Of a DNA stretch of 64,000 nt, positions 8,751-64,000 are shown in pieces. A program made the position numbers and the translations under genes. A model generated the notes under the pieces. It worked only from the letters and a program-made list of their open reading frames with translations. It did no database searches and was not told where the DNA came from. The stretch comes from an uncultured Alphaproteobacteria bacterium. GTDB lineage: Bacteria; Pseudomonadota; Alphaproteobacteria; GCA-2731375. The stretch lies in NCBI GenBank assembly GCA_951812805.1, contig CATOSZ010000001.1:1600017-1664016 (forward strand). The letters run 5' to 3'. Each line of letters starts with the position of its first letter. Positions within the stretch are counted from its first letter, which is position 1.

Positions 8751-8759
8751 GCGCGGTCG

Positions 8760-10384: not shown

Positions 10385-10397
10385 GCCGTGGCGGCGC

Positions 10398-30520: not shown

Positions 30521-30650
30521 CACCACGCCTCCATCTTCCTTGCCGGGCGACGGTATCGGGTCGGACGGGGCGGCGCAAACGAGGGCGCGTCGGCGCGTTT
30601 GTTCCGTTGCCGCCGCCGTTCTAGTCTTTTGGTGCGGGGAGGGGGCCGGC

Positions 30651-46723: not shown

Positions 46724-46895
46724 TGCGCGTTTCGGAAAGTCCCGGACACCGATTACGGAAAGTCCTGGCCAGAGATTTCAGTAAGTCGCGGCCAGTGATT
46801 CCGGAAAGTCCCGGACAGCATCACGGGGCGATCTGAGTTCAGCTTTCGGGTGCGCCGTCTCGGCGTCTACCTCTTGGCTTTTGCCGGGAGGGGAC

Positions 46896-48449
46896 ATGCC
46901 CAGACGGAAGCAGACGAGACGAACGACGGTGAGAGATGCACGAACGATCCTGCGGCTGACGCATGACCAAGGCCTCTCGGCGCGAGAGGTGGCGGAACGG
47001 CTGAAGGTCTCCAAGACGACAGTGTCGACCTATTTGCTGCGGGCCCGCGAGGTCGGCCTTACCGCCTGGCCGCTGCCGGCGGAATACGAGGACGACGCGG
47101 TCCTGCAAGAGACGCTGTTCCGCCGCATGGGCCGGCCCCCGCGCGACAGGTGCGAGCCGCACTGGCCGACGGTCGCGGCCGAGCTGAAGCGCAAGGGGGT
47201 GACGCTGACCCTGCTCTGGCAGGAATACCGCGCCTCACATCCCGATGGCTACGGCTACACCTGGTTCTGCGAAGCCTTCACGGCGTTCAAGCGGCGCACC
47301 GGCGCCACCTGGCGCAACCGCCACGAGGCCGGTGCGGTCATGCAGACCGATTATGCCGGCCAGACGGTGGACATCGTCGACCCCGAGACCGGCGAGGTGC
47401 ACGACGCGCAGATCTTCGTCGCCGTGCTGGGCGCTTCCTCGCTCACCTTCGCCACCGCCAGCCTGACCCAGCGCCTGCCCGACTGGGTCGCCGGACAATG
47501 CCGGGCGCTCGCCTACTTCGGCGGCGTGCCCAAGAGCATCGTCTGCGATAACCTCAAGGCCGGCGTCGCCAAGCCGCTCTGGTTCGAGCCGACCCTCAAC
47601 CCGACCTTCGCCGCGCTCGCCGAGCACTACGACACCACCGTCCTGCCGACCCGGGTCCGCAAGCCGCGCGACAAGGCCAAGGTCGAAGTCGCCGTCCAGG
47701 TCGTCGAGCGCTGGATCCTGGCAAGACTGCGCAATACGCGCTTCTTCTCCCTCGACCAGCTCAACCGGGCGATCCGCGACCTCCTCGAGGAGCTCAACGA
47801 GCGGCCCATGCGCAACCTTGGAAAGAGCCGGCGCCAGATGTTCGAGGCCATCGAGCGCGAGGCCCTGGCACCCCTGCCGACGACGCCCTTCGAATATGCC
47901 GAATGGAAGACCGCCAAGGTCCATTCCGACTATCACGTCGACGTCGAGCGCAGCTTCTACTCCGTGCCGCACGGCCTGATCGGCCGCAAGGTCCAAGTCC
48001 GGCTCACTCACCGCACGGTCGAGATCTTCCACAACCACAAGCGCGTCGCCAGCCATCTCCGCCGCTCACCGCATGGCGGCCATGCCACGATCCCGGCCCA
48101 CATGCCCAAGGCGCACCAGCGCTATGCCGAGCGAACGCCACAAAGCCTGATCGACCAGGCCAGCCGCATCGGCCCCAACGCCGCCCTCCTGGTCGAGCGG
48201 ATGATCCGCGATCGGCCCCATCCCGAGCAAGGCTATCGCAGCGCCATGGGCGTCTTGTCGCTCGCCCGCCGATACGAACCGGAACGCGTCGAGGCCGCCT
48301 GCGCACGCGCGCTCACCATCAACACGACCAGCTACTCATCGCTCGCCGCCATCCTCAAGTCCGGCCTCGATCGCACACGCCCCGAGCGCGAACCGCTTCT
48401 GCCGCTGCCGCCACACACCAACATCCGCGGCCCCGGCTACTACCGATAA
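46896..48449 (+). CDS. istA: IS21-family transposase IstA
   Basis: HTH N-terminus plus DDE integrase core (…[33 protein letters not shown]…). ATG 46896 after GGGAGGGG. Confidence 0.9.
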
Positions 48450-48466
48450 CCAGGAGAAGACACCTC

Positions 48467-49243
48467 ATGCTGACACACCCGACCCTCGACCAGATGCAGG
48501 CCCTCGGCTTCAAGGGCATGGCAGAGGCTTACCGCGACATGGCCGAGCGAGGCCAATCATCGGAATTGAACCGCGAGGACTGGCTCGCCCTCATGCTCGA
48601 CCGCGAGGCCGCCACCCGCGCCGACAAGCGCCTCGCCAACCGCCTCAGACAGGCCAGGCTACGCTTCCCCGAGGCCTGCATCGAGGACATCGACTTCGCC
48701 GCCGAACGAGGCCTCGACCGCCGCGCCGTCCTCTCTCTCGCCCAGGGCGTCTGGCTCAAGGCACACGAGAACCTCATCGTCACCGGCCAGACCGGAACCG
48801 GCAAGACATGGCTCGCCTGTGCCATCGCCCATCAGGCCGCCAGGCTCGATCATTCCGTCCTCTACGTCCGCATGCCCAGGCTCTTCGAGGACCTCGCCAT
48901 GGCCCGCCTCGACGGCCGGCTGCCCCGCCTGATCGACCGCCTCGCCCGGGTCCAGCTGCTCGTCCTCGACGACTGGGGAACCCATGGCCTGACCGACCGC
49001 CAGCGCCTCGATCTCCTGGAAATCTGCGAGGAACGATACCACCGACGCTCAACCCTCATCACCGCGCAGATCCCCGTGACCGCCTGGCACGACCTGATCG
49101 GCGAGGCCACCATCGCCGACGCCATCCTCGACCGCGTCATCCACAACGCCCACCGCATCGGCTTGAAAGGCGACAGCATGCGAAAGAAGAAATCGACGAC
49201 CGACTTGACCCAGCCAACCACAACGGAAAACAATCCCGACTGA
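48467..49243 (+). CDS. istB: IS21-family helper ATPase IstB
   Basis: Walker [14 protein letters not shown]. Walker B LLVLDDWG. Confidence 0.9.
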
Positions 49244-49529
49244 CGGCAACAAGGCACCCGAAGCCAAACTCCCGGAACCGGCCGGGACTTTATGAAATCG
49301 GTGGCCAGGACTTACTGAAACCGCCGTCCGGAACTACCGAAATCCGCAGCCCGCCACGGAGGAAGAACTTTTCCCGTTCCTTGAAGGTCCTGGTGTCCCC
49401 GAAGGGGAGCGGTGTCCTGGGCCCGCGCACGCATCGAATCCAGTGTCGCCGCCTCGACGATCGCAGCCAGACGTCCTGCATCCAGAGCGGCGTCGAAAAT
49501 CCCCGCCAAAACTCTGGTGTCCCCAGATT

Positions 49530-51461
49530 TCAGACAGGATTATACCCGGGTATAATCGGGTAGGAGGGGTCCTCTCGGCGCCCCTCCTCCCACACCACCG
49601 GGCATACGTTCTACGTACCACGGCGGTTTCCGGTCAGTTGTAACGCGAGATACCTATCGGTCATAGGGACAAGCCCCTGGCCTTCGAACCAAGCCAGGGT
49701 CATGGCTTCGGTGGCTTGATAGCTGAGGGACTTGCGCCACCAGCCCTTGCCGGAGAGAGCCAAGATCCAGGCCCGCCGCTCGGGCACCCCGAGGCTTCGC
49801 AGGAAGTCCGCTTGCGCCTTGGTGCGCTTGCATTGCTTGAGCCGGACACAGCGCAGTTTTCGACGGATCCAGCCGTCGAGACGCCGAAGCTGGCTCGCGC
49901 AACGGGCATGGCGGAAGTACGTCACCCAGCCGGCGAGGAAGCCGTTGAGTTCGCCGACCATGCGCGCGAGGCTGATGCCCCGGTTGCGCCGGGTGATCTC
50001 GCGAACCCGTTGCTTCGCCCGCCGCAGGCTTTGCGGCGCGATGCCGAGCGATCCATCCGACAACAGCCGGTGGCCGAGGAACTTGCGGTCCCCGGCCGGA
50101 GCGACGGCACTTTTCTCCTGGTTGACCCGCAGATGCAACCTGCCTTGGAGGAATTCGGCGACCGAGGCCATCACCCGCTCGCCCGCCGCTCGAGTGCGAA
50201 CGTAGATGTTCACGTCGTCGGCATAACGGCAGAAGCTATGGCCCCGCGCCTCCAGCATCCGGTCCAGATCGTCCAGTAGAAGATTGGCCAGCAGCGGCGA
50301 CAGCGGGCCGCCTTGCGGCGTGCCCTCATGGCGCCGGATGCAGACGCCGGTCTGCATCATCCCCGCTTGCAGAAAGCGACGGATGGTGCGCAGCAGGCGC
50401 TTGTCGCCAATCCGCCCAGCCAGTCGGGACATCAGAATGTCGTGATTGACCCGGTCGAAGAACGCCTCCAGATCCAGGTCGACCACAATCCCGCGGCCTT
50501 CGGCAACGTACTTACCCGCTTGGGCCAGAGCATCGTGAGCGCTCCGGCCCGGACGGAAGCCGAAACTCGAAGCCGAGAAACCCGGATCGAGGATCGGCTG
50601 AAGGACGTGCAGGATGGCTTGCTGAACCAGACGATCCAGCACCGTCGGGATGCCCAATTGCCGCATCCCGCCTCCCGGCTTGGGGATCGAGACCCCCTTC
50701 ACCGGTTGGGGCCGATAGTCGCCTCGCGACAACGCCGCCACCAGCGCGTCCTTGTGATCGACGAGCCAGAGCCGCAGGTCTTGGATGGTCATCCCATCCA
50801 CGCCCGCCGACCCCTTGTTCGCCTTCACCCGCTTGTAGGCTTGGTTCAGGTTGGCGGAACTCACCACCCGTTCCATCAGGTCTTGCGTCAAGGCTCGTTG
50901 CCGGTCCAACGCCGTGCGCACTTGTGGCACCTCGCAGGCTCCAGTTCCGGTTCCGCCGTCACCAGGGGCCTCGGGGCGCAGCGCCTTCATCAGGGCCTCG
51001 TCGAAAAGGTCCAATTGATAGCCACCGCCTTGCTGCCGCTCCATGCTCATCGAGTTGGTCCAGACTGCTCCTTGCTATTCGGATTCGGCCCTTCGGCGCC
51101 TCGCGGCCCCTACTATGGCCTCGGCTGACTTCTCCACCGCCGTCGCTCCCCGTCGCCGGGTCGCTACTCGGTTCCCCCGAGAGCGCTGGAGATCTCCCTG
51201 GGTAAAACCTTGATCTTTCCGCCGGTCGCGGCCGGATTTACCAATGCGATGTCCGAACGACTATCGGGCATCGCCATCCATTGCTGGCTTACCCCATCGC
51301 ACCGGCCTGATATCCGGTTTCTGTTCGTCCGCTCCGGATTTTGCCTCCGGCTTCCTCCCCACCCCACCTCGCGGCGACGCAGTTGCCTTCAGCTAACGGT
51401 TCCGGTCGTTACGGCCCGTAGAGAACTTCCATCTCCTAGATCAACGCCATGCCAGGCACAC
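49530..51461 (-). mobile_element. Group II intron (class C-like, about 1.9 kb) inserted immediately 3' of a terminator hairpin; 3' boundary approximate
   Basis: The minus-strand 5' end GUGUG at 51461-51457 directly follows the hairpin plus U-run. A 479-aa RT/maturase ORF sits in domain IV. GNRA-capped D5-like hairpin at 49558-49596. 20-bp palindrome at 49538-49557. Confidence 0.6.
49611..51050 (-). CDS. Group II intron-encoded reverse transcriptase/maturase
   Basis: RT domains 0-7 (…AYKRVKANKGSAGVDGMTI…FGFRPGRSAHDAL…YADDVNIYV…) and X/maturase region. 479 aa. Confidence 0.9.
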   Translation of the reverse strand: MSMERQQGGGYQLDLFDEALMKALRPEAPGDGGTGTGACEVPQVRTALDRQRALTQDLMERVVSSANLNQAYKRVKANKGSAGVDGMTIQDLRLWLVDHKDALVAALSRGDYRPQPVKGVSIPKPGGGMRQLGIPTVLDRLVQQAILHVLQPILDPGFSASSFGFRPGRSAHDALAQAGKYVAEGRGIVVDLDLEAFFDRVNHDILMSRLAGRIGDKRLLRTIRRFLQAGMMQTGVCIRRHEGTPQGGPLSPLLANLLLDDLDRMLEARGHSFCRYADDVNIYVRTRAAGERVMASVAEFLQGRLHLRVNQEKSAVAPAGDRKFLGHRLLSDGSLGIAPQSLRRAKQRVREITRRNRGISLARMVGELNGFLAGWVTYFRHARCASQLRRLDGWIRRKLRCVRLKQCKRTKAQADFLRSLGVPERRAWILALSGKGWWRKSLSYQATEAMTLAWFEGQGLVPMTDRYLALQLTGNRRGT

Positions 51462-51488
51462 AAGAAAAGGGGCCGCCGAAGCGGCCCC
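51462..51488 (-). terminator. Rho-independent terminator (GGGGCCGC-UUCG-GCGGCCCC + UUUUCUU) serving as the intron target
   Basis: Perfect 8-bp GC stem with a UUCG loop and a U-run on the minus strand. The intron 5' end abuts it. Confidence 0.55.
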
Positions 51489-51680
51489 TAACGATGTCCT
51501 CGATAACCTCACCATTTCCCGGAACATTGGGCGGATGCTCCCGATGTCCATGATGCCGTCAGCAAGTTCATCCTCCTTCAACCACGAAGTTGGTGGAAGA
51601 TGCGCCCTCGGCGATTCCCTGTCAAGGGCAAATGTGAGGCCGTCGGAGATATCGCCCGGTCCCGCCCCGGTCGATCAACC

Positions 51681-53081
51681 ATGCAACAGCACAACACCTC
51701 CCACACCAGCTCCACCCCCCGTCCCTGGCTCGCCAACGAGAGCCTCAACCCGAGCGGCGGCCGGGAACGCTCCCCGGTCCACAAGCAGGCCGAGAGGGGC
51801 GCGGAGAGCTTTCTCGGCCTGCCCGAGGGCATCAAGCGCTTCGAGATCCTCGCCGTCCTGCGCCGGGTCGGCCTCGAGGACGGCTGGACACGCGGCCTGA
51901 TCAGCCACTACGAGCTGCTGCTCACCTACACCAGGGAGAGCGACTGGGCGCCGGGCGGACGACCCGTCGTCTGGCTCTCGGTGGAGAAGGCGGCCCAACA
52001 GCTCGGTATCTCCCCCCGCCAGGTCCGGCGCAACGAGCGGCGGATGATGGAACTGGGCGCCCTGGCCTTCCGTGATTCTCCCAACCACCGCCGCTTCGGG
52101 CGCCGCGACGGCGAGGGCCGGATCGTCGAGGCCTATGGCCTGGACCTCTCGCCCGCCGCCGCCCTGCTGCCCCGCCTGGCACGGCTGGAACAGACCCTGG
52201 TCCGGAACAGGGCCGAATGGCGCCGGCTCAAGCGGGAGATCGGCACGGCCCGCAAGGGCATCCGCGCCGCCATCGAATGGGCCCTCGAACACCAGCGCGT
52301 GAGCGACGAGATCGCCGAGACGCTCTGGCAGGGATTACAGGGCTTCGCAGAGCGGATCCGCGCCGAAACACCCCTCGATGGCTTGCGTCAACGACTGGCC
52401 GAACTCCGCGCCTTCGACGCCCGTCTGTGGCGTCTGATCGGGGAAGATCGGCCCGTGGACCCGCCCGGGGACAATTCCCCCAACGACGACAATGACTTGC
52501 CGGCCAATATGTCCGCCACGGGGGACCGATATGTCCGCCCTGGCGGACATCCGTGTCCGCCACCATTAGATGACAATACAAACCTAGTTCCTGATCAAGG
52601 AATACCGGTAAGCGGCGGCGAAGCGGCCGCCGGGCCGGCAAGGGACGAAGGGGGCGCGGCGGTGGCGGCTCACCGGCACCCGCCGGGGCGCGGCGGAGAG
52701 GAAGGGGGCCGGCACGGGGATGTGCCCCGGCCCCGGGTGTCGTGGGACAACCTGCTGGCGATCCTGCCGCCGGGCCTGCGCCATCGGCTGCCGCTCGATG
52801 AACATCCCTCCTGGTCCTCGTTGATCGACGCGGCGGGCGAGCACGCCGCCGAACTCGGCATCTCGCCCCATGCCTGGGGGGAGGCCTGCCGGGCAATGGG
52901 CCGGGAGGGGGCGGCGATGGCGGTGATCGTCGTCGCCGCCAAGCACCACCGGGGCGAGGTGCGCCGCCCCGGCGGCTACTTGCGCGCACTGACGGCGCGG
53001 GCCGGGACGGGGGAGCTGCATCTCGCCCGCTCCGTGTACGGCCTGCTCAACACAACCACGGGAAAGGAACAGAACCGATGA
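51681..53081 (+). CDS. repC: Replication initiator protein, RepC-like (HTH)
   Basis: …WLSVEKAAQQLGISPRQVRRNERRMMELGALAFRDSPNHRRFGRRDGEGRIVEAYGLDLSPAAALLPRL… matches the RepC family core. Followed by parA-parB with ATGA overlap. Confidence 0.7.
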   Translation: MQQHNTSHTSSTPRPWLANESLNPSGGRERSPVHKQAERGAESFLGLPEGIKRFEILAVLRRVGLEDGWTRGLISHYELLLTYTRESDWAPGGRPVVWLSVEKAAQQLGISPRQVRRNERRMMELGALAFRDSPNHRRFGRRDGEGRIVEAYGLDLSPAAALLPRLARLEQTLVRNRAEWRRLKREIGTARKGIRAAIEWALEHQRVSDEIAETLWQGLQGFAERIRAETPLDGLRQRLAELRAFDARLWRLIGEDRPVDPPGDNSPNDDNDLPANMSATGDRYVRPGGHPCPPPLDDNTNLVPDQGIPVSGGEAAAGPARDEGGAAVAAHRHPPGRGGEEGGRHGDVPRPRVSWDNLLAILPPGLRHRLPLDEHPSWSSLIDAAGEHAAELGISPHAWGEACRAMGREGAAMAVIVVAAKHHRGEVRRPGGYLRALTARAGTGELHLARSVYGLLNTTTGKEQNR

Positions 53082-53803
53082 CGAAGACCCACAACATTCA
53101 CCCCTTCCCGCGCCCCCTGGCGCGGAATACACAACCCCCGGGCGGACTTCGCCGGTTGGCGGTGCTCTCGCGCAAGGGCGGGGCGGGCAAGACGACGCTG
53201 GCGGTCAATCTGGCGGTGGCGGCGCAAGCGCGCGGTCTCCCCTCGGCGGTGCTGGACGTGGACCCGCAGGCCTCGGCCAGCGCCTGGGCGGAGGTCCGTG
53301 GCGCCACATCGCCGGTGGTCCGGCATTGCCCGGCGCGTCATGTCGAGCGTGTGCTGGGCGAGGCGGCCGAGGACGGCATCGCCCTGGCGCTGATCGACAC
53401 GGCGCCGCACGCGGAGGGGGCGGCGTTGACGGCGGCGCGGGCGGCCGATCTGGTGGTCATTCCCTGCCGCCCGGCGTTGTTCGATCTCTGCGCGGTCACC
53501 GACAGCCTGGACATGGCCCGGCTGGCAAATGTTCCGGCGGTGGCGGTGGTGAACGCGGCGCCGGCGCGGGGCCGGTTGGCGGCGGAGACGGCGGCGGCGC
53601 TGGCGAACCTGGGCCTGGACGCGGTGGCGCCGCCTCTCGGACAGCGCGCCGCCTTCGTGCATGCCCTGACGGCGGGCCAAGGCGTGGTGGAGTACGCGCC
53701 CCGTGGCAAGGCGGCGGGGGAGGTTCTGGCGCTGCTGGATCGATTGTTGGCCCATCCCGCCGTGCGGGCGACGGCGAAGAACAACGAAGGGAGGCTGGCA
53801 TGA
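53078..53803 (+). CDS. parA: ParA-family partition ATPase
   Basis: Deviant Walker A KGGAGKTT. 241 aa. Confidence 0.9.
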   Translation: MTKTHNIHPFPRPLARNTQPPGGLRRLAVLSRKGGAGKTTLAVNLAVAAQARGLPSAVLDVDPQASASAWAEVRGATSPVVRHCPARHVERVLGEAAEDGIALALIDTAPHAEGAALTAARAADLVVIPCRPALFDLCAVTDSLDMARLANVPAVAVVNAAPARGRLAAETAAALANLGLDAVAPPLGQRAAFVHALTAGQGVVEYAPRGKAAGEVLALLDRLLAHPAVRATAKNNEGRLA

Positions 53804-54759
53804 CGAAACAACGGAACTTGGCGGAAGCGTTCCGCTCGCTATCGCCGGAAGCAAGGACGGGCAATGGGGAAGGCCAAGCCGAACAGAGCGAACTGGAAAC
53901 GGCGCGTCCCCGGCGGACGCTGTCGGTGGCGCTGGCGGCGATCCGGGTCGAGGACCGCTTGCGGCTGGGTCTCGATGAAGCGAAGATCGAGACCATTGCC
54001 GCCTCGATGCGGGACATCGGCCTGCAATCGCCGGTGCTGCTGCGCCCCTGGCGGGAGGCGGATACGACGCGTCCCCATGCCTGGGGGGCGTCCGACGCGG
54101 GGGTGTTCGCCCTGGTGGCGGGCGCGCACCGGTTGGCGGCGGCGCGGGTGTTGGGCTGGACGGAGATCGAGGCGATGATCGTGGACGGCACGCCGGACGA
54201 AGTGCGTTTGATGGAGATCGACGAGAACCTGGCCCGGGCCGAGTTGACGGCGCTGGACCGGGCGCGGTTCCTGGCGGCGCGCAAGGCGGTGTACGAGCGG
54301 CTGTTTCCCGAAGCATGCAATGGGGGAGACCGCAAGAGCATTGAATTCGCGGAGAAAAATCGGATGGAAAACATTTCCATCCGATCCTTCGCCGACGATG
54401 CGAGCGCGAAGATGGGGCTGACGTCGCGCGCGGTTCGCCGCGCGGTGGCGATCGGCGAAGGCATCGACGACGAGGCCGCCGAAGCGCTTGCCGGGACGGC
54501 ATTGGCGGACCGGGAGGGGGATCTGCACCGCCTGTCGAAACTGTCGCGCGCGCGCCAGCGCGTGGTGGCGGGAGTTTGCGCGTCGATGCCGGGGTCGGCG
54601 ACGCTGGACAAGGCCTTGTCGGCGATCGACGGCAAGGCGGCGAGCGGCAGGGCGAGGTCATCGGAGGCGGCGCAGCTGGAGGCGCTACGCCGGGCCTGGC
54701 GGAAGGCGTGTCCCGAAGCCCGGCGGCGGTTCCGGGATGAGGTGTGCCGGGAGGCGTGA
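53800..54759 (+). CDS. parB: ParB-family partition protein
   Basis: ParB/Srx N-terminal domain plus HTH (…LQSPVLLRPW…, …GLTSRAVRRAVAIGE…). ATG 53800 after GAAGGGAGG. ATGA overlap with parA. Confidence 0.8.
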   Translation: MTKQRNLAEAFRSLSPEARTGNGEGQAEQSELETARPRRTLSVALAAIRVEDRLRLGLDEAKIETIAASMRDIGLQSPVLLRPWREADTTRPHAWGASDAGVFALVAGAHRLAAARVLGWTEIEAMIVDGTPDEVRLMEIDENLARAELTALDRARFLAARKAVYERLFPEACNGGDRKSIEFAEKNRMENISIRSFADDASAKMGLTSRAVRRAVAIGEGIDDEAAEALAGTALADREGDLHRLSKLSRARQRVVAGVCASMPGSATLDKALSAIDGKAASGRARSSEAAQLEALRRAWRKACPEARRRFRDEVCREA

Positions 54760-54764
54760 AGCAA

Positions 54765-54796
54765 GGGGGAGGAACGAATCTCTCCGTTCCTCCCCC
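54765..54796. terminator. Bidirectional terminator hairpin between convergent parB and recombinase genes
   Basis: gggggaggaacg aatctctc cgttcctccccc (perfect 12-bp stem). Confidence 0.5.
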
Positions 54797-54841
54797 TTCC
54801 GTGCCGCTGTTCATGCTGGTTTGCGATTTCCGGTTGGCCGT

Positions 54842-56422
54842 CTACGCGGCGGCAATGGCCAGGTCGACCAATCCGTCCGTGCGGGGGGTGACGGTGAGGT
54901 TCATGTCGTAACGATTGTCCGGATCGGGCGCGGCGACGATGCGTTCGATCAACGTGGAGAGGGTCATCAGCGCGTCATGCCGCTTGACCGGCGCGCGCGC
55001 GTTGGCGATGGCGGCGGCGAGCGTGTCGAGTTTATCCAGCAACCGTGCCGTCAGCACGTCGGGATCGACGGTGGGCGGGCTGGCGAGCGCGGCGTATTCG
55101 TATTTCAGCCGGGCCTCGGTGTTTTCCAGTGTCAATAGCTGGCGGTGCAAGCTCTGGGCCGCGGTGCCCTCCTGGATGGCCGAGACGATATTGGCGATGT
55201 GGCGCTGGTTGGCGGCCATGTGTTCGGCCATGGCCTCGCGGGCGGCCTGCCTGGCGGCGGCGGCTTCGGCCAGCAGGGCGGGCCAATCCTGCTGCCGCGA
55301 GAGTTGCCGGTGCAGGCTCTCCATGGCGTGCCGTTCCACGACATCGACGGCGATGCGCCGGTTCATCTCGCAGGTGCCGCTCTGGCGGCGATTGGTGCAG
55401 CCGTAGCGCCCCTTGTTGATGACGCTCATGGAGCCGCCGCAGACGGCGCAGTGGAGGAGAGGGCTGAGCGGCAGGGGGACGCGGGTGGCGTGGGCCTGGC
55501 GGCGGTCGTAGCCCTTGAGGCGGCGGGTTTGGACGGCGTCCCAGAGCGCGTCGTCGACGATGCGCAGGTTGGGGACGTCGGTCACGATCCATTCGGCGGG
55601 CGGATTATCGCGGGCGACGTGTTTGCCGGTGTCGGGGTTTCGTTTCTTGCGGGTGCGATTGAAGACGATCCGGCCGCGATAGAGTTCGTTGTTGAGGATG
55701 CCGGTGCCGCGCCGGGGCCGGCCGTTGATGGTGTAGGCGGTCCAGAGGCCCTTGCGAGGTCCGGGAATGCCATCGGCGTTGAGCAGCGCGGCGATGTTGC
55801 GCGGACTGGCGCCGTCGGCATAGAGGCGAAAGATACGGCGGACGACCTTGGCCTGTTCGCGGTTCACGGTGCGCAGGCCACGCGTGAGCTTGCCGTCGGG
55901 GCCTACTCTGTTGGCGACGTTGTATCCGTAGCTGAGCCCGCCGCCGGCGCGGCCCTCGCGGACACGGCCCATCTGGCCGCGCCGGGTCTTGCTGGCGAGG
56001 GCGACGAGTTGGCCCTGGTTCATGACGCCCTTGAAGGCGATGTGAATGGGCTGGACTTCGCCTTCCTCGATGGTGACGAGGTCGAGATCGTGAAAGACGA
56101 GGCGGTCGTAGATGCCGGAGGTGTCGGTCTGTATACGGCTGATCCGGTCGAGGGCCTCGGTGTAGATGGCGTCGAAGAGGCCGGCCTTGGCGTCCTGGAG
56201 CATTTGCGCGAGGCCGGGACGTTCGTGGAGGGTCTGGCCGGTCGAGGTTGAATCTGTATAGATGCCGGCGACGGTGCCGCCACGTGCGCGGATGCGTTCC
56301 TCGCAGAGGGCGATCTGGTCCGGGATGGAGCGCGGGTCCTGGAGGTGGGAAGAGTAGCGGGCATAGATGGCGTAACGCTGTGTCGTGCGGGCAAGCGCAG
56401 TCGGCATGATGGCATGGTTCAT
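54842..56422 (-). CDS. Large serine recombinase (resolvase/invertase catalytic domain + recombinase + zinc-ribbon domains)
   Basis: …YAIYARYSSHLQD…GGTVAGIYTD… catalytic Ser region. Recombinase domain and CxxC…C zinc ribbon (CAVCGGSM…GRYGCTNRRQSGTC). ATG 56422 after GGAGAC. Confidence 0.85.
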   Translation of the reverse strand: MNHAIMPTALARTTQRYAIYARYSSHLQDPRSIPDQIALCEERIRARGGTVAGIYTDSTSTGQTLHERPGLAQMLQDAKAGLFDAIYTEALDRISRIQTDTSGIYDRLVFHDLDLVTIEEGEVQPIHIAFKGVMNQGQLVALASKTRRGQMGRVREGRAGGGLSYGYNVANRVGPDGKLTRGLRTVNREQAKVVRRIFRLYADGASPRNIAALLNADGIPGPRKGLWTAYTINGRPRRGTGILNNELYRGRIVFNRTRKKRNPDTGKHVARDNPPAEWIVTDVPNLRIVDDALWDAVQTRRLKGYDRRQAHATRVPLPLSPLLHCAVCGGSMSVINKGRYGCTNRRQSGTCEMNRRIAVDVVERHAMESLHRQLSRQQDWPALLAEAAAARQAAREAMAEHMAANQRHIANIVSAIQEGTAAQSLHRQLLTLENTEARLKYEYAALASPPTVDPDVLTARLLDKLDTLAAAIANARAPVKRHDALMTLSTLIERIVAAPDPDNRYDMNLTVTPRTDGLVDLAIAAA

Positions 56423-56461
56423 GGCGTTCGGTCTCCGTAAGACGATGAAAAGCGCCCGCCG

Positions 56462-56700
56462 CTGGTCTCCAGGCGGCCCTCCAGCCTCGCTCGGGCTCCC
56501 CTCCGATGCGCGGTGCCGGCTGCGGGTTGTATCGCGGCACGAGCGAGCTGAAACGTCGTATCGAAGACGGCGACGAAACACCCATACATTAGCGATACCC
56601 GTATTGACTGCTGGTCCCTTGGAGTCATATGCTGGCGGCCTCTTCACGGGGCCTCTTTCTACACGCTAGGAGCCCTGAAGTGATGTTGATCTCTCGAAAG
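56462..56700. repeat. Copy A of an about 240-bp duplicated divergent promoter/5'-UTR segment (copy B at 60885-61190)
   Basis: Near-identical sequence (…ggtctccaggcggccctccagcctcgctcggg…cgacgaaacacccatacattagcgatacccgtattgactg…) upstream of both SLP genes and of both divergent minus-strand genes. Confidence 0.6.
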
Positions 56701-57951
56701 CCCCAGTGGGGAGTGCCAGCCGCGGCCATGGCTGCGGCGCTGCTTGTCGCCGGATGCGGCAGCAGCACCACAGGCACTACGTCCGATGCGGCGACGCCAT
56801 CGAAGCCGGTTGCGCCGACCGAGCAGGAAAAGGCTGACGCCGCGAAACCGGTTGCGCCGAACGAGCAGGAAAAGGCTGACGCCGCGAAACCGGTTGCGCC
56901 GAACGAGCAGGAAAAGGCTGACGCCGCGAAACCGGTTGCGCCGAACGAGCAGGAAAAGGCTGACGCCGCGAAACCGGTTGCGCCGAACGAGCAGGAAAAA
57001 GCTGACGCCACGGCAGTATTGAGTAGCGACAGTTTTGTTAGTATTAGTAGCCCTCCTGCCAATCAACTGATCGCTGCGGCCACGGCAGCTGATGATGTCA
57101 CGAAGAAGGTAGCTGAGGAAATTGCGAGTGCAGCAGCCGCTACTCCTTCACTCGGCAGTGTTCACCAATCAACGGCTGCTCCCGATGCGCGTAGGAAGAA
57201 GATTGGCGTGTTGTCGTCCCGGCACTACAAGAACAATGTAGTGTTTTATGCCAAAGACGGTAATGGAAACTTTTTCCACGATTCAATAACTGACGGCACC
57301 GTCGTGAACGCTCCTATCGATGGATGGAATGGTGTTGAGTGGAAAAATAAGGATGATACCGGCACACTTCGTGTCAGGGGTTATGGAACAGAGCGCGGCG
57401 TCATGCCTCTTTTTGCCCTCGGTTATTGGCTCCATGTTCCAGACGATGCCACGAGTGCCGATTCCTATGAGGTTGGGGTCTTCGCCCTCGGCGGCGGCGG
57501 TGGTTTCAATACGGGACATCTCTCGGGCCTCACCGGCACTGCCACATACGAAGGCGATGCGGTCGGTCTGTATGCCAAGAGAGCCGCAGTCGAAGACACC
57601 CCTGACATCAAGGAGTTCACTGCCGATGTCGCTCTGACGGCGGATTTCGGCGCTAACACCGAACTCGGTAGCGTGAGCGGGACGGTATCCAACTTCAATG
57701 TCGGCGGCATGGAGAAAGCGCTGAAGTTGAGCCTCGGAAGCGCAACTATCACTGGCACCCGATACGGAGGCTTCTTCAAGGGAGGAGACACCAGCGCCGC
57801 TGGCGGGTTCTCGGGCAAGTGGGCAGGCGCGTTCTACGGCGACGGACAAGCCACCACCGACAAGCCAGCCAGCATCGTCGGGACCTTCGGCGCTGCGAAG
57901 AGTGATAAGTTGGAGAGCTTCATTGGGGCCTTCGGCCCCAAGAAGCAGTAG
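56683..57951 (+). CDS. Surface lipoprotein (SLP) with TbpB/fHbp-like C-terminal 8-strand barrel (copy 1)
   Basis: Lipobox LLVAGC. 5× in-frame 13-aa repeats (KPVAPNEQEKADAA). C-terminal domain …ATYEGDAVGLY…FTADVALTADF…LGSATITGTRYGGFFKGG…GAFYGD…IVGTFGAAKSDKLESFIGAFGPKKQ, characteristic of Slam-dependent lipoproteins. RBS AGGAG. Confidence 0.75.
   Translation: MLISRKPQWGVPAAAMAAALLVAGCGSSTTGTTSDAATPSKPVAPTEQEKADAAKPVAPNEQEKADAAKPVAPNEQEKADAAKPVAPNEQEKADAAKPVAPNEQEKADATAVLSSDSFVSISSPPANQLIAAATAADDVTKKVAEEIASAAAATPSLGSVHQSTAAPDARRKKIGVLSSRHYKNNVVFYAKDGNGNFFHDSITDGTVVNAPIDGWNGVEWKNKDDTGTLRVRGYGTERGVMPLFALGYWLHVPDDATSADSYEVGVFALGGGGGFNTGHLSGLTGTATYEGDAVGLYAKRAAVEDTPDIKEFTADVALTADFGANTELGSVSGTVSNFNVGGMEKALKLSLGSATITGTRYGGFFKGGDTSAAGGFSGKWAGAFYGDGQATTDKPASIVGTFGAAKSDKLESFIGAFGPKKQ
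56806..57000 (+). repeat. 5× tandem 39-bp in-frame repeat within SLP1
   Basis: aaaccggttgcgccgaacgagcaggaaaaggctgacgccgcg repeated head-to-tail. Confidence 0.85.
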
Positions 57952-57975
57952 CTCCGGGCGGGCTTGACTTCAAAC

Positions 57976-58029
57976 GGGCGGGGTCCGGAGAGAAACGCTC
58001 CGAGCCCCGCCCGGCTTTTTTCCGTTTTT
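57976..58029 (+). terminator. Rho-independent terminator after SLP1 (identical arrangement after SLP2 at 63437-63490)
   Basis: gggcggggtccggag agaaacg ctccgagccccgccc followed by ggcTTTTTTccgTTTTT. Confidence 0.6.
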
Positions 58030-58041
58030 AGTTTTCCATGT

Positions 58042-58102
58042 GGGCTTCTCCGAGGCGAGCGAGGCCGCTCCGGCGGAGGCCCCGCTCGCCTCGGAGAAGC
58101 CC
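58042..58102 (+). promoter_or_regulatory. 20-bp perfect inverted repeat overlapping the putative SD of Slam (also at 63503-63565)
   Basis: gggcttctccgaggcgagcg [21 nt] cgctcgcctcggagaagccc ends 5 nt before the ATG. The GGAGAAG SD candidate lies in the 3' arm. Confidence 0.5.
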
Positions 58103-58107
58103 ATCTC

Positions 58108-58760
58108 ATGCATCCGTTATCGATATTCCGTGCGCTGGCGTTGGGAACGGCGCTGGCATGTGCCGTACCAGCCTGGGCAAGACCGGATTCGACGCCACCC
58201 CGCGCCGATGCGGCCGAGGCCCAGGAACTTGTCCGCGATGGCCGGTTCGAGGACGCGCTGGAGCGTCTCCGCCCCCTGGCCGAAGGGGGCACGGTGGATG
58301 CGGCGGCGATGTTCCAGTTGGGCCTCGCGGCGGTGGGCGCGGCGCAAGAAGCGGATTTGGCGGAGGCGAAGCGCGAGGCGCTGCTGGCCGAGGCGATCGC
58401 GGCCTTCCGGTCGCTTCTGGTGCGTCGGCCGGGCCTGGTGCGGGTACGCCTGGAGCTGGCCCGTGCCTTCTTCTTGAAGGGCGAGGACGATCTTGCGAAG
58501 GCGCATTTCGAGCGCGTGCTGGCGGGCAAGCCACCGGCGGCGGTGATTCACAACGTCAACCGCCTTCTGGCGGAGATCCGCGCACGTAAGCGCTGGAGCC
58601 TCAATCTCGGCTTCGCGCTCGCGCCGGACAGCAACGTTTCGGCGGCGTCGGACAATCGGACGATCTGGATCGACACGGCCTACGGTCGTCTGCCGTTTAC
58701 CTACGAGACGGCGCCGAAGTCGGGTATCGGCGTCTCGGTGTGGGCCGGGGGTGAGTACCA
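58108..58760 (+). pseudogene. Slam-like (DUF560) surface-lipoprotein translocator, copy 1: N-terminal TPR + start of barrel, truncated by an IS1182-family fragment
   Basis: Signal peptide MHPLSIFRALALGTALACAVPAWA. TPR-like region. …KRWSLNLGFALAPDSNVSAASDNRTIWIDTAYGRLPFTYETAPKSGIGVSVWAGGEYQY, then IS-derived sequence from about 58757. Confidence 0.6.
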
Positions 58761-59340
58761 GTATCCGCGACGGACCCGGACTCGCGCATCATGCCGGTGG
58801 CCGGCGGCGGCTTCGAGCAGTGCTACAACGCCCAGGCTGCGGTGGCCGCCGGCAGCCTGCTGGTGGTCAGCGCCGACGTGGTGCAGGCGGCGAACGACAA
58901 GCAGCAGATCGAACCGACGCTCGAAGCACTCGCCGGCCTGCCGGACGGGCTTGGCGAGGTCGAGACCCTGTTGGCGGACAGCGGCTACTTCAGCCAGGCC
59001 AACGTCGAGGCCTGCGGGGAAGCGGAGATCGCGCCGCTGATCGCGCTCGGCCGGGAGCACCACCATCTTTCCTGGCGGGACCGCTTCGCCGAGGCGCCGC
59101 CAGCGCCCGAGGATCCGACGCCGCTCGAGGCGATGTGCCATCGCCTGGCCACACCCGAGGGCCGGGCGCTCTACGCGCTTCGCAAGCAGACGCCGGAGCC
59201 GGTGTTCGGCATCATCAAATCGGTGATGGGCTTGCGTCAGTTCAGCCTGCGCGGCCTCGACAAGGCGAAGGGGGAATGGACCTTGGCCACGCTCTCCTGG
59301 AACATCAAGCGGATGTTCGTCCTCAGCCACGCCTGAACGG
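58757..59340 (+). mobile_element. IS1182/IS5-superfamily transposase fragment (C-terminal about 190 aa only)
   Basis: …TDPDSRIMPVAGGGFEQCYNAQAAV…ADSGYFSQANVEAC…EPVFGIIKSVMGLRQFSLRGLDKAKGEWTLATLSWNIKRM… There is no N-terminal half upstream. Confidence 0.6.
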
Positions 59341-60001
59341 GCGGGCCAACCCGCGTTCGCAACTTCATGGGGGTAAATCCATGACATCGACGCCCGCCAA
59401 GCCAATTTTACCAATCCTTGCATGCCCGAGTCCGACAGGCTGCTAGGCCCACTCGTTGGCCCTCCTCTGACCTCGCACGAAGACATCGAGCGGATGCTGG
59501 ACAGATCAGTAGGCGCTCGGGCGGAGAATGATGATGAAATCCCACCCGAGGCCGCCGCCGAGATCATGCGCGAATACCAGGACGATCATTATCGACGAGC
59601 GCTAGGCGATCCCTTGCCCATGCTTGACGGGAAGACGCCGCGACGCCGTCCTCCAACCCCTGATAACATGTCGGGGCAGGCCAAAAACCTGCATGGGGAT
59701 CTCCTTCAAGCTGTTGGTCTCGCAACTCACAGCTTCGGAGATCCCCGCCTCTGCCGCCAGAGGCGCGTCTCACATCTATCTGAACCTAGTCACCTCGCCC
59801 GGCGAAGCAAGACGCGAAAAGCGCTCCCACACCACGCGACGGGACACGACGTGCTGCCCGCCGCACCCGGGCTATGGGCCGGTCACGGTCCCAGAGCTGG
59901 GTAGTTTCTGCAAGGTACAGGCCGTCCTCCAGCCCCATGCCGATACCCCGGCTGATCTCCTGTTTCTGGCGGTGCGTTGGTTTCTCGCGGAACCACGGTG
60001 C

Positions 60002-60841
60002 TCAATCGCGCCGGCGAAGTCGACCCGCCCCGGCGACGGTCTCGGCGAGGCTCCGGCCCGGCTGTAGGGTGTATCCGGTCTTCTGTTCCAGGGCCGCGTA
60101 GCGGCGGTAGAGCGCGGGCCGGGCGCGGGCGGCGATGGTTAGATCGGCTTTACTGGCGAAGAGGCAAAAGCTGCACGACAGGCGTGAGGCGCCGAGATCG
60201 TAGGCTTCGTGCCGGCGCTGCCCGGAGGCCTGGATGGTTCGCCACACCTGATCCAGGGTCATGTCGCGGATAGGCAGGAAGTCGTATACCGTGCGTTTGG
60301 CGGTGGAGAGGCGTTTGTTCAGCGCCCAAGCGTCCCGGGCCGCGCGGCTGTGGGATTCTTCGGCGCGCAGACCGAGGCAATTCATGACCAGGGGCGCGCC
60401 GAGGCCGCGGATGAACTTTTCTACTGGGGCGCGCTTTAGATCCGAAGTGCGGAACCTCTGATTCGCCGAAGGGAAGGGTGAGGCGTCCCGCCCGTCGGCG
60501 CGCAACTTGCGGCGGCGGCAACGGACCATGTCGAGCAGGTGTTTTTCCGAGCCGTCGCGCCAGACGGCTTTCACCACGTTGAGCTCATGGGCGATATTGG
60601 CCCGAATGTGGTCCTGGACGCCGGGCCATTCCACCTCGCCGAGATCGGCGTGCACGACGATGATCCGCTCGTGGGGCACGAGGGAGGAGACGACGGCGTA
60701 CATGGCCTGGCTATCCTTGCCACCTGAATGGTTGAGGACGAAGACGGCGCCGGCGGCAAGGCTCTCGTGGCGTGACGGCCCTATCGGTAAACGCGGCCCA
60801 ATCGCATGGGGATGTGAGGAGGGCGTGGTGGCGTGGCTCAT
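60002..60841 (-). CDS. PP-loop ATPase, PAPS-reductase/DndC-like family protein
   Basis: PP-loop VLNHSGGKDSQAMYAV. ATG 60841 is preceded by GGAGAC and the shared promoter repeat. Confidence 0.75.
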   Translation of the reverse strand: MSHATTPSSHPHAIGPRLPIGPSRHESLAAGAVFVLNHSGGKDSQAMYAVVSSLVPHERIIVVHADLGEVEWPGVQDHIRANIAHELNVVKAVWRDGSEKHLLDMVRCRRRKLRADGRDASPFPSANQRFRTSDLKRAPVEKFIRGLGAPLVMNCLGLRAEESHSRAARDAWALNKRLSTAKRTVYDFLPIRDMTLDQVWRTIQASGQRRHEAYDLGASRLSCSFCLFASKADLTIAARARPALYRRYAALEQKTGYTLQPGRSLAETVAGAGRLRRRD

Positions 60842-61062
60842 GGTGGATTGTCTCCGAGACTGATGTTGAGAGAGGCGAGCCCGCTGCGGTCTCCAGGCGG
60901 CCCTCCAGCCTCGCTCGGGTTCCCCTCCGATGCGCGGTGCCGGCTGCGGGTTGCAGCGCGGCACGAGCGGGCTGAAACGTCGTTTCGAAGACGGCGACGA
61001 AACACCCATACATTAGCGATACCCGTATTGACTGATGGTCCCTTGGAGCCATATGCTAGCGG

Positions 61063-61140
61063 CCTCTTCACGGGGCCTCTTCACGGGGCCTCTTCACGGG
61101 GCCTCTTCACGGGGCCTCTTCACGGGGCCTCTTCACGGGG
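61063..61140 (+). repeat. 13-bp tandem repeat (cctcttcacgggg) ×5+ in the SLP2 promoter/5' region; single copy at the equivalent position of SLP1 (56646-56660)
   Basis: ggcctcttcacgggg cctcttcacgggg cctcttcacgggg cctcttcacgggg cctcttcacgggg cctcttg…. Confidence 0.85.
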
Positions 61141-61168
61141 CCTCTTGCTAAACGCTAGGAGCCCTGAA

Positions 61169-63421
61169 GTGAAGTTGATCTCTCGAAAGCCCCAGTGGGG
61201 ACTGCCCGCCACCGCGATGGCTGCGGCGTTACTCGTCGCCGGATGCGGCGGTGGAAGTAATAAGAACGATTCGGCGGCGGCGGAGCCCCCGCCGGTGGCA
61301 TCGACCGAGCAGGAGCGGTTTGATGCGCGTGATGCGGTGAGGGCAGCCGAGAGTGCCCGGGCGGCTGCGGAGCGGGATGTTGCGGATAACGCGGTGTCTG
61401 AGATCGCGGCAGTATTGAATGCCGTCGAAGGTGAAGTGGCGAGGGCCAATGAGGCCGTTGACGCGGCCAGACTCGCAGGCACGGATGATGCCAGAGCTTC
61501 GGAGGCTGCCGACAGCGCTGCGTCTGAAGTAGAGATGGTGAACCAGGCGATGCAAGAAGTAGAAGCGGCGAGGCTTGCGCTGGACCAGGCGACTGCCGAT
61601 TACGAACAGGCCACGAGGGATGCGGACATTGAGACGCAGGCAGGCGCGACGGTCATCCAGACGGCGGCAAACACTCTGAAGGACGCAGCCGAGAACGCGA
61701 GTATGGCAGCGGCGACGGCCATGGAAAATGCCAACGTTGCCCTTGACGAGGCCATGTCATTCGCCCAGATGGCGGCTGACGCTGCGGAGCCGGTGGCATC
61801 GACCGAGCAGGAGCGGTTTGATGCGCGTGATGCGCGGAGTCTTGCTGAGGACGCACGTGCGGAAGCGCTGCAGATAGTTACCGACGACGCGGCATCTCGC
61901 TCAGAAAGATACGCGGACGTCGCTTCTGAAGCGCAAGAAAGGGCTAGGGCCGCTCGCACAGATGCTAGGACGGCTTCGGAGCAGAGTGAGAGGGCGTCCG
62001 AGCAAGCGGAGATCGTGAGGTCCGCAAGGGCTGCCCTGGATGAGGCTATTGCCGAGTACGAAAGGGCAACGCAGGATGCGGACATTGAAACGCAGCAAGG
62101 CGCGAGGGCCATCACGGATGCTGCGAACAACTTGAGGGACGCTGCCGACACGGCAAGGACGAGTGTCGAAGCGGCCATCGTCTCCGCCGAGACTTTTGCC
62201 GAGGAGGCAACCGCCGCTGCGGGTACGCATGTGCTTGAGCTGTTCAGGACGGCGAATGCATACGGCGAAGAGGCCGCAGAGCAAGATGCTTTCATCGAGG
62301 CGGCCGGTGAAGCGATTGTGGGGGCAGCCAATGCTAATAACGCCGACACCGTTTCGGTCACCCCTATCTGGAACAATGTGCCGGTCAACGGCGATACGCC
62401 AGCCGACGTGGATTTGAAATTCCAAGTTGATGACATCGAAGTAGACAGCGACAACGTGAGGGTCATCGACCCGCTCGGCGACTTCGAGCATGGGCGTGAG
62501 ATGGAGGTGGAAAATGGGTTCAAGCTAATCGTCTTCACGGACAAAAAGCAGGCCGATGCTCCAAGAGAAGGAGTAACAGCAATAGAAGCCAAGGAATTCA
62601 ATACCGCCTCGGTCCGTCTCGGCAAAGTCCAAGGCGACAGGAGCGATCCTGCTAACGTCACCTTCTACGACGAGGAGGATTTAGTTGGTGGGGCATCGAG
62701 GGATTTTCCAGATGCCGCGTACGCGTATTCTGGAGGCTTGACATGCCCAGATGCCACAGTTTGCTCCATCGAAACGGACGGCACTGTCGTGGGCTACGTG
62801 TTCACGGGGAAACGAGAGGCCGTAGCTGCTGTTTCAGCAAGAACTGGGAGGGAGCAAAACGACGACTACCTCTCGTTCGGCATCTGGTTGAAGGGGGATA
62901 ACGTCAGTAATCTTGCCTTCGGTGCTTTCGAGGACGGTGGCGATCCGATTGGGACAACAGATGGCTTAACGGGGATCACGGGCAACGCGACCTACAGTGG
63001 TTCGGCTGCTGGTGCCCATCACAAGACCGGCGAAGGCGTGAACTGGTTCGATGGCAAAGCGAGCCTGACTGCCAAGTTCGGGGATGCTTCGAGTCGGGGT
63101 ACCGTCGAAGGTGATATTAGCGAGATCAGAGTGGGTGGTGGCGCAGCACTGGAGGACAAGATTCGCCTGCAAACGACTCCTATTGGGGTCAGTGATACTG
63201 TTGCGGCCGGTGTGGCTGTGATGGGTTCGATCCTGGATGCGAATTCGAACGTACAGCACAAGTTCGAGGGCACGTGGAACGCGACTTTCTACGGGCCGGA
63301 TACGAACGATGAGGAAGAGAACATCGCCCCCAAGGCGATTGGCGGCACTTTTGGCGTCAGTGATACCACCGATGAGATTACCGAGAGCTTCATTGGTGCC
63401 TTCGGCGCCAAGAAGCAGTAG
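61169..63421 (+). CDS. Surface lipoprotein (SLP) copy 2: conserved signal/lipobox and C-terminal TbpB-like barrel, divergent Ala/Glu/Asp-rich repeat-containing middle
   Basis: GTG start (the ATG of copy 1 is AAG here). Lipobox LLVAGC. Two about 170-aa internal repeats (VASTEQERFDARDA…ATxDADIETQxGA…). C-terminus …NATFYGPD…IGGTFGVSDTTDEITESFIGAFGAKKQ. Confidence 0.75.
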   Translation: MKLISRKPQWGLPATAMAAALLVAGCGGGSNKNDSAAAEPPPVASTEQERFDARDAVRAAESARAAAERDVADNAVSEIAAVLNAVEGEVARANEAVDAARLAGTDDARASEAADSAASEVEMVNQAMQEVEAARLALDQATADYEQATRDADIETQAGATVIQTAANTLKDAAENASMAAATAMENANVALDEAMSFAQMAADAAEPVASTEQERFDARDARSLAEDARAEALQIVTDDAASRSERYADVASEAQERARAARTDARTASEQSERASEQAEIVRSARAALDEAIAEYERATQDADIETQQGARAITDAANNLRDAADTARTSVEAAIVSAETFAEEATAAAGTHVLELFRTANAYGEEAAEQDAFIEAAGEAIVGAANANNADTVSVTPIWNNVPVNGDTPADVDLKFQVDDIEVDSDNVRVIDPLGDFEHGREMEVENGFKLIVFTDKKQADAPREGVTAIEAKEFNTASVRLGKVQGDRSDPANVTFYDEEDLVGGASRDFPDAAYAYSGGLTCPDATVCSIETDGTVVGYVFTGKREAVAAVSARTGREQNDDYLSFGIWLKGDNVSNLAFGAFEDGGDPIGTTDGLTGITGNATYSGSAAGAHHKTGEGVNWFDGKASLTAKFGDASSRGTVEGDISEIRVGGGAALEDKIRLQTTPIGVSDTVAAGVAVMGSILDANSNVQHKFEGTWNATFYGPDTNDEEENIAPKAIGGTFGVSDTTDEITESFIGAFGAKKQ

Positions 63422-63576
63422 GTCCTGGCGGGCTTGACTTTAAACGGGCGGGGTCCGGAGAGAAGCACTCCGAGCCCCGCCCGGCTTTTTTCCGTTTTGT
63501 TTTTCCATGTGGGCTTCTCCGAGGCGAGCGGGGCCGCTCCGGTGGAGGCCCCGCTCGCCTCGGAGAAGCCCATCTC

Positions 63577-64000
63577 ATGTATCCGTTATCGATATTCCGT
63601 GCGTTGGCGTTGGGAACGGCGCTGGCATGTGCCGTACCAGCCTGGGCAGCGCCGGATCCGGCACGGCCCAGCGCCGATGTGGCCGAGGCCCAGGAACTTG
63701 TCCGCGATGGCCGGTTCGAGGACGCCCTGAAGCGTCTCCGCCCCCTGGCCGAAGGGGGCACGGTGGATGCGGCGGCGATGTTCCAGTTGGGCCTCGCGGC
63801 GGTGGGCGCGGCGCAAGAAGCGGATTTGGCGGAGGCGAAGCGCGAGGCGCTGCTGGCCGAGGCGATCGCGGCCTTCCGGTCGCTTCTGGTGCGTCGGCCG
63901 GGCCTGGTGCGGGTACGCCTGGAGCTGGCCCGTGCCTTCTTCTTGAAGGGCGAGGACGATCTTGCGAAGGCGCATTTCGAGCGCGTGCTGGCAGGCAAGC
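63577..64000 (+). CDS. Slam-like (DUF560) translocator copy 2, 3' end cut by the window edge
   Basis: MYPLSIFRALALGTALACAVPAWA… is more than 90% identical to copy 1 over the available 141 codons and is not interrupted within the window. Confidence 0.7.
   Translation, partial: MYPLSIFRALALGTALACAVPAWAAPDPARPSADVAEAQELVRDGRFEDALKRLRPLAEGGTVDAAAMFQLGLAAVGAAQEADLAEAKREALLAEAIAAFRSLLVRRPGLVRVRLELARAFFLKGEDDLAKAHFERVLAGK

Follow-up and report, generated by a model that had tools for sequence, protein, structure and literature searches.

Two neighbouring genes for surface lipoproteins (SLPs), each followed by the beginning of a gene for a Slam-type outer-membrane translocator, raise the question of whether two dedicated display systems are maintained side by side or whether a single translocator serves both cargos. 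The genes lie at the end of a 64,000-nucleotide stretch of DNA from an uncultured alphaproteobacterium (positions 1,600,017 to 1,664,016 of contig CATOSZ010000001.1, assembly GCA_951812805.1), here called the window, in which coordinates are given unless another contig is named. The locus is a real SLP/Slam, or type 11 secretion system (T11SS), locus and was correctly recognised as such in the initial annotation of this DNA; it belongs to a widespread family and is not a new kind of system. In what we regard as the highly probable reading, it consists of two cargo and translocator modules of a T11SS, of which only the second translocator (Slam2) is intact. The features of the two modules are:

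56454-56679, + strand: upstream block of module 1, 91-95% identical to 60879-61249, containing a promoter-like site, 1.6 copies of a 13-nt repeat and a ribosome-binding site (RBS)
56680-57951, + strand: SLP1 cargo gene, encoding a 423 aa lipoprotein
56801-57010, + strand: tandem coding repeats in the SLP1 linker, 5 x 42 nt (repeat finder)
57975-58021, + strand: terminator-like hairpin and T6 run after SLP1, arms CGGGCGGGG...CCCCGCCCG
58042-58102, + strand: near-perfect 61-nt hairpin of module 1 (fold analysis)
58108-58768, + strand: Slam1 remnant, ATG at 58108, 220 codons, 95.7% identical to Slam2 up to 58768
58769-59343, + strand: C-terminal fragment of an IS1182-family transposase (Pfam DDE_Tnp_1_6 and DDE_Tnp_1; blastn to annotated IS1182-family transposases)
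60879-61168, + strand: upstream block of module 2, containing a promoter-like site, 6.6 repeat copies and an RBS
61169-63421, + strand: SLP2 cargo gene, encoding a 750 aa lipoprotein
63445-63491, + strand: terminator-like hairpin and T6 run after SLP2 (fold analysis)
63511-63571, + strand: second copy of the long hairpin, over the Slam RBS (fold analysis)
63577-64000, + strand: first 141 codons of Slam2 in the window, ATG at 63577, covering the signal peptide and TPR region

A duplicated module

Both SLP open reading frames (ORFs) were found on the + strand where the initial annotation had placed them, with likely starts at GTG 56680 or ATG 56683 for SLP1 and at GTG 61169 for SLP2, each 7 nt 3' of an AGGAG sequence (56668-56672 in module 1). 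They are bracketed by two duplicated blocks, one on the 5' side (56454-56760 versus 60879-61249) and one on the 3' side (57913-58768 versus 63383-64237, the latter end in window-equivalent numbering), where identity is 95.7% over 856 nt. The duplication of the module is far beyond chance, and the cargo genes between the blocks show no DNA-level alignment. The stop codon of each SLP gene lies 156 nt 5' of the corresponding Slam start. An assembly artefact was considered as the source of the duplication and rejected, as two contigs of ENA sample ERZ18545485 (L002 and L003), both of which run past the window end, show exactly the same arrangement, with L003 identical to the window across 7318 nt; because both come from the same sample, their support is only weakly independent.

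One intact translocator

According to the initial annotation, a terminator, a hairpin and a Slam gene come after each SLP gene. The terminator and hairpin are present in both modules, but no complete Slam follows SLP1. The Slam1 gene keeps its signal peptide, TPR region and first ~55 barrel residues, with foreign sequence fused on behind them. Because its similarity to Slam2 stops at codon 220, where the IS1182-family transposase fragment takes over, Slam1 is a pseudogene, and the locus therefore holds one working translocator at most; the sequence is that of a gene cut after 220 codons by a rearrangement that left an IS1182-family remnant. The 219-residue N-terminus of Slam1 has hundreds of homologues, many of them with the SlipAM/DUF560 domain (PF04575), a domain for which the truncated Slam1 itself gives no match.

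The Slam2 gene passes the window end and reaches window-equivalent position 64941, and the complete protein, taken from L002 and L003, has 454 aa and ends ...SFVRLF. Its assignment to DUF560 was upheld over the full length of the domain, with an E-value of 8e-30 and 104.8 bits (cut-off 22) across residues 163-452, corresponding to positions 1-286 of the 288 in the profile. By inspection, Slam2 also carries a Sec signal peptide, MYPLSIFRALALGTALACAVPAWA, followed by APDP (cleavage AVPAWA↓A), and a C-terminal Phe. A sequence search against the PDB gave no solved homologue of Slam2. Together, the sequence features support the identification of the downstream gene family as Slam.

Divergent cargo proteins with a common predicted fold

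As the initial annotation had noted, the two cargo proteins share a lipobox and their final residues and differ in between. Both N-termini read M(M/K)LISRKPQWG.PA.AMAAALLVAG↓C, with 69% identity over the first 54 aa and a signal peptide and lipobox Cys in each (LLVAG↓CGSS in SLP1, Cys26; LLVAG↓CGGG in SLP2), and both proteins end ESFIGAFG[PA]KKQ, the last 12 residues being common to the two cargos. The last ~190 aa are 31% identical (BLASTP 5e-18), and the middles cannot be aligned.

Structure prediction, which the initial annotation had suggested, gave models of both proteins in which a C-terminal 8-stranded barrel is preceded by a beta handle. The AlphaFold2 model of SLP1, built on a 32-sequence alignment, has a disordered N-terminal portion of 125 residues and a confident all-beta C-terminal half with 8 final strands, so that the predicted order is signal peptide, disordered Pro/Glu/Lys-rich linker, short helical segment, beta handle and 8-strand barrel. 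The linker contains the unit KPVAP[TN]EQEKADAA in five tandem 42-nt copies, which are missing from a related SLP1-like allele in another locus of the same sample (L001). SLP2 begins with the shared signal peptide and continues with two ~165-aa Ala/Glu/Asp-rich repeats (aa ~30-430), an extra beta domain carrying a conserved Cys pair, the handle and the 8-strand barrel; the model of residues 400-750 (46 sequences) has a mean predicted local distance difference test score of 83.9 and, again, 8 final strands. With 27% Ala, 20% Glu+Asp and almost no Pro or Gly, residues ~30-430 of SLP2 would be expected to form a long helical stalk, and a sequence search of this region against the PDB gave no matches. 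The structural matches of SLP2 were fHbp (14.2), TbpB (12.6), NHBA (12.0), hemophilin (12.0), HpuA (11.0), LbpB (10.8) and PmSLP (9.5), with alignments of 140-199 residues covering handle and barrel, and Foldseek agreed.

Profile comparisons gave weaker matches in the same direction. The SLP1 family profile matches the whole NHBA barrel at E=0.014, three homologues (P0143, P0149 and P0150) lie narrowly above the cut-off of TbpB_B_D (PF01298; 26.3-27.1 bits versus 26), and 2 of 46 SLP2 relatives match TbpB_B_D or a related Pfam cargo model. The SLP family is thus too divergent for the Pfam cargo models, yet clear by its predicted fold and its synteny.

An exhaustive search of 50%-identity cluster representatives with the C-terminal ~300 residues of SLP2 returned 356 representatives at E<=1e-3, 57 of them at E<=1e-30. 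Many members have 600-1500 aa, with the module at the C-terminus, and the family is without annotation. Among the 150 best matches, 98 exceed 450 aa, and 31 of these 98 have an Ala/Glu-rich N-terminal region according to a simple composition filter. The large lipoproteins of this sizeable family, SLP2 among them, have long, often Ala/Glu-rich N-terminal extensions on a conserved ~300-aa C-terminal module.

Related loci

Scanning GTDB species representatives with Slam2 identified 35 loci, of which the weakest (31% identity) was dropped, leaving 34 loci at 47-64% identity. All are in metagenome-assembled genomes, mostly labelled Alphaproteobacteria, Defluviicoccus or Rhodospirillales, with some Paracoccaceae and a few under other labels, and a single genome holds up to 6 such loci. 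The Slam ORF is intact in 29 of the 34, and in 27 an SLP-barrel ORF ends no more than ~300 nt upstream of Slam on the same strand; extra SLP genes occur downstream in some loci, and a GC hairpin with a T-run separates SLP and Slam in at least 11. The locus in the window thus brings Slam/T11SS systems whose cargo has a TbpB-like barrel into a group of Alphaproteobacteria that are uncultured and rich in insertion sequences (IS); its closest relatives are in genomes labelled Defluviicoccus, Rhodospirillales and Alphaproteobacteria.

The initial annotation regarded a duplicated pair as unusual for this lineage, a view that the surveys do not support because Slams are already known across proteobacterial classes: Hooda et al. 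2017 (PMC5449769) report them from every clade of the Proteobacteria, and several T11SS per genome have been described (PMC8406197). The up to 6 loci per genome and the frequent SLP-Slam pairs seen here also speak against it.

One further module from the same sample lies at 7273-10500 of a 178-kb contig (L039), under an unrelated promoter. Its cargo has Asp-rich DxDxDG-type repeats that look thrombospondin type 3-like by eye. The cargo gene is split into 234 + 288 aa and the Slam into three ORFs, and IS256-type transposase fragments stand on the flanks.

Proposed cargo exchange between conserved flanks

The boundaries of the duplicated flanks coincide with the edges of the mature cargo. The 5' flank ends one codon past the lipobox Cys (56760 and 61249) and the 3' flank restarts 12 codons before the stop (57913 and 63383), so that the part that differs is exactly the mature cargo minus its last strand. 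The cargo genes also differ in composition, with a GC content at third codon positions (GC3) of 0.63-0.65 compared to 0.80-0.83 in the Slam genes and ~0.85 in neighbouring genes; in a 2-kb profile, GC falls to 0.604 at both cargo genes in a window of 0.667 overall. Conserved flanks around unrelated low-GC3 interiors point to cargo exchange, or to flank homogenisation, by homologous recombination.

The L001 locus adds another arrangement. An SLP1-like cargo (89% identity) lies there between a PAPS-reductase flank and Slam, which is the context of SLP2 in the window. Over its first ~240 nt the L001 Slam shares 99% identity with Slam2, and past an insertion it shares ~95%. The insertion, an IS21 element (7362-9989), splits the gene and matches the IS21 element at 46723-49350 of the window at 100% across 2628 nt; these identical copies suggest recent transposition in the population. 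Taken together, the sequences indicate that different surface proteins can be placed on one export chassis through recombination. Antigenic or ligand diversification, which the initial annotation had proposed, is plausible because the cargo interiors appear to have been replaced between conserved flanks. The locus shows in a clear natural case how the cargo can be replaced while the export signals on either side of it stay conserved, and it could help to define what Slam recognises.

In place of module 1, L001 has a block (1879-4749) containing a 175-aa ORF, an M78 peptidase-domain gene, a Beta_protein (PF14350) gene and a 132-aa ORF. It sits between the recombinase and the PAPS reductase, which makes the difference between the two haplotypes a block replacement. 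The serine recombinase and PAPS-reductase genes have a similar start and ~60-90 nt of similar 5' leader (56415-56500, 60840-60925 and L001 1540-1625); this shared leader, at the edge of the duplicated block upstream of the SLP genes, may mark a recombination junction.

Leader repeats, terminators and hairpins

The leaders upstream of the SLP genes carry a promoter-like sequence, TTGACT-18-TATGCT, at 56604-56633 in module 1, with a counterpart at 61028-61057 in module 2, although the promoter scan found these 2 sites where 1.4 were expected by chance, which is not statistically meaningful. A 13-nt repeat, GGCCTCTTCACGG, separates the -10-like hexamer from the SLP RBS and is present in 1.6 copies in module 1 (56637-56657), 4.6 copies in L001 (5834-5893) and 6.6 copies in module 2 (61061-61146); in a three-way alignment the three leaders are otherwise 92-100% identical. 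The number of copies decides whether an upstream ATG (56629 and 61053) is in frame with the SLP gene, as in module 1 and L001, or opens a short ORF that ends on the RBS, as in module 2. It is possible that a repeat-based switch operates alongside cargo exchange. The three alleles (module 1, module 2 and L001) all derive from the one sample, and scans of Joint Genome Institute (JGI) metagenomes for further alleles of the repeat and of the conserved 3' arm gave no matches.

The long hairpins between SLP and Slam fold with z-scores of -5.0 (58042-58102) and -7.4 (63511-63571), and the 3' arm holds the probable Slam RBS (GGAGAAG), 6 nt ahead of the ATG in module 1. The 61-nt hairpin is confined to the two module sites within the 64-kb window, a distribution that led us to reject a dispersed element resembling a repetitive extragenic palindrome. 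The terminator and the RBS-occluding hairpin are predicted probably to keep Slam expression well below cargo expression.

Proposed mechanism and competing explanations

By analogy with the characterised family, Sec would export SLP1 and SLP2, the lipobox Cys would be lipidated and Lol would bring the lipoproteins to the outer membrane. There, a Slam outer-membrane protein would recognise the C-terminal 8-stranded barrel and move them to the cell surface. Slam2 would most likely serve both cargos in trans, with the terminator and the hairpin over the RBS probably holding its expression below that of the cargo, and homologous recombination would account for an exchange of the cargo genes or a homogenisation of their flanks. 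Several observations weigh against this reading. The Slam2 barrel lies outside the window and was read from contigs of a single metagenome sample. The TPR_Slam model (PF24575) scores 27.2-27.8 bits on the Slams (27.8 on Slam1), below its cut-off of 35.2, and TPR_16 (27-28 bits, cut-off 32.7) and TPR_19 (22.5-22.8 bits, cut-off 25) likewise remain below theirs; with TPR E-values of 1e-4 to 1e-6, these scores agree with a periplasmic N-terminal TPR domain but fall short of the curated limits. No Pfam or NCBIfam family, the Lipoprotein_5 and TbpB_B_D suggested by the initial annotation included, matches SLP1 or SLP2 at E<=0.1, so that what supports their membership is predicted structure, weak profile matches and synteny. 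In addition, no TonB-dependent receptor or other partner hinting at function was found near the modules.

Intact cargo genes with a conserved promoter region and signal peptide but different interiors would also be expected of two fully functional SLP and Slam pairs, each Slam dedicated to its own cargo and kept for antigenic or ligand diversification, and dedicated Slam paralogues are known in Neisseria (PMC5449769). Such an arrangement is nevertheless very unlikely here, as Slam1 runs into the IS1182-family fragment at 58768 and its SlipAM domain is undetectable, which refutes the reading for Slam1 unless a TPR-only protein of 220 residues can be active, and the remaining parts of Slam1 and Slam2, at 95.7% identity, give no sign of specialisation. 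The same truncation, together with the damage to sibling modules in the sample (the IS21 insertion within the L001 Slam and the broken cargo and Slam genes of L039) and a region full of IS elements and group II introns, might instead mean that module 1 is a decaying by-product of IS-mediated rearrangement, with SLP1 no longer exported or expressed and module 2 alone of consequence. We consider this unlikely, although not negligibly so, because the SLP1 ORF, lipobox, promoter-like block and RBS are all intact and a near-identical Slam2 is encoded at a distance of 5.5 kb; several cargos can share a single Slam in Neisseria. It is very unlikely that the SLPs face the periplasm or are otherwise Slam-independent lipoproteins beside which Slam stands incidentally, given that their best structural matches are exclusively Slam/T11SS cargo, handle included (170-199 aligned residues), and that same-strand adjacency is kept in 27 of the 34 related loci.

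A more elaborate possibility is that the locus is a dedicated variation system, a cargo-swapping and switching device of a host-associated alphaproteobacterium in which near-identical homology arms bracket interchangeable cargo cassettes of foreign composition and the 13-nt repeat, whose length is not a multiple of 3, tunes or phase-varies expression. On the 5' side, one arm would run from the promoter through the leader and signal peptide as far as the lipobox Cys; on the 3' side, the other would start with the last strand of the barrel and extend through the terminator and the hairpin to the Slam gene itself. The repeat number would toggle the leader ORF in and out of the cargo frame. Several features are consistent with such a device: the flanks break off precisely where the mature cargo begins and ends, L001 has another cargo in an equivalent setting, the repeat number varies in otherwise near-constant leaders, and the upstream ATG is in frame in module 1 and L001 but out of frame in module 2. 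However, just three alleles from one sample bear on it, the metagenome scans yielded no more, the upstream ATG is not needed where a strong RBS and start lie inside it, ordinary gene conversion can produce mosaic flanks without a dedicated mechanism, and more distant modules such as L039 are without these arms. The device as a whole, along with the roles given to its arms and its repeat, is accordingly rated as rather improbable. Under the preferred reading of two modules with one intact Slam2, the main appeal of the locus lies in its mosaic of replaced cargo, in the leader repeat with its variable copy number and in the large, uncharacterised family of SLP2-type proteins.

Relation to known systems

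Among the closest known systems are the Neisseria Slam1 and Slam2 with TbpB, LbpB, fHbp and HpuA, and the T11SS-secreted haemophores hemophilin and HphA. Compared to the Neisseria systems, the SLPs described here are too divergent for the Pfam cargo models and have unrelated N-terminal effector regions. The locus also differs in that it has no TonB-dependent receptor partner in its vicinity, belongs to an uncultured alphaproteobacterium and retains one of its Slam copies only as a pseudogene. NHBA (GNA2132) of Neisseria meningitidis is another close system, from which SLP1 differs in having a handle domain and a helical segment ahead of the barrel and in its repeats (KPVAPNEQEKADAA x5). SLP2 resembles Pls-like cargo (Haemophilus parahaemolyticus Pls/TepS), which is likewise lipidated and has, as predicted for SLP2, a long stretch of alpha-helical repeats ahead of its barrel, and T11SS-dependent secretion has been shown for Haemophilus Pls (PMC12282271); SLP2 differs in its two ~165-aa Ala/Glu/Asp-rich units, in place of short EEARKA-type repeats, and in its extra conserved beta domain with a Cys pair.

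Alphaproteobacterial T11SS surveyed previously, namely cluster 3 in Rhodobacteraceae/Roseobacteraceae and the surface proteins of Sphingomonas (PMC12282271, PMC8406197), likewise combine a DUF560 outer-membrane protein with a putative cargo encoded next to it, in which an 8-strand barrel forms the C-terminus. The 2025 survey of T11SS cargo covers Rhodobacteraceae and Sphingomonas systems and cargo classes with helical-repeat or disordered N-termini (PMC12282271). Unlike the surveyed systems, the stretches examined here contain no DUF1194 or GloA neighbours.

Genomic context

The modules sit in a mobile-element-rich segment of an uncultured high-GC alphaproteobacterium. The neighbouring features are:

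46723-49350: IS21-family element (istA/istB)
49611-51050, - strand: group II intron reverse transcriptase
51600-53081: RepC-like gene
53078-53803: ParA gene
to 54759: ParB-like gene
54842-56422, - strand: large serine recombinase, divergent from SLP1
60002-60841, - strand: PAPS-reductase-family gene, divergent from SLP2

The portion from 49611 to 56422 is a plasmid- or integrative and conjugative element (ICE)-like segment that borders on genes of ordinary metabolism; the contig that carries it has a reported length of 1.73 Mb. A megablast search of positions 50000-64000 against plasmids revealed no related replicon; its matches, at 71-77% identity, were confined to fragments of IS elements and group II introns. 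Beyond the window, a 758-aa ORF on the - strand converges on the end of Slam2 (L003 8517-10793, window-equivalent 64986-67262); it has no Pfam match, is Ala/Arg/Glu-rich and is ~95% conserved in L001. Further upstream in the window, three paralogues with an adenylate/guanylate cyclase domain and C-terminal TPR repeats (30483-32579; 39191-41107, - strand; 42651-44402, - strand) lie within 14 kb.

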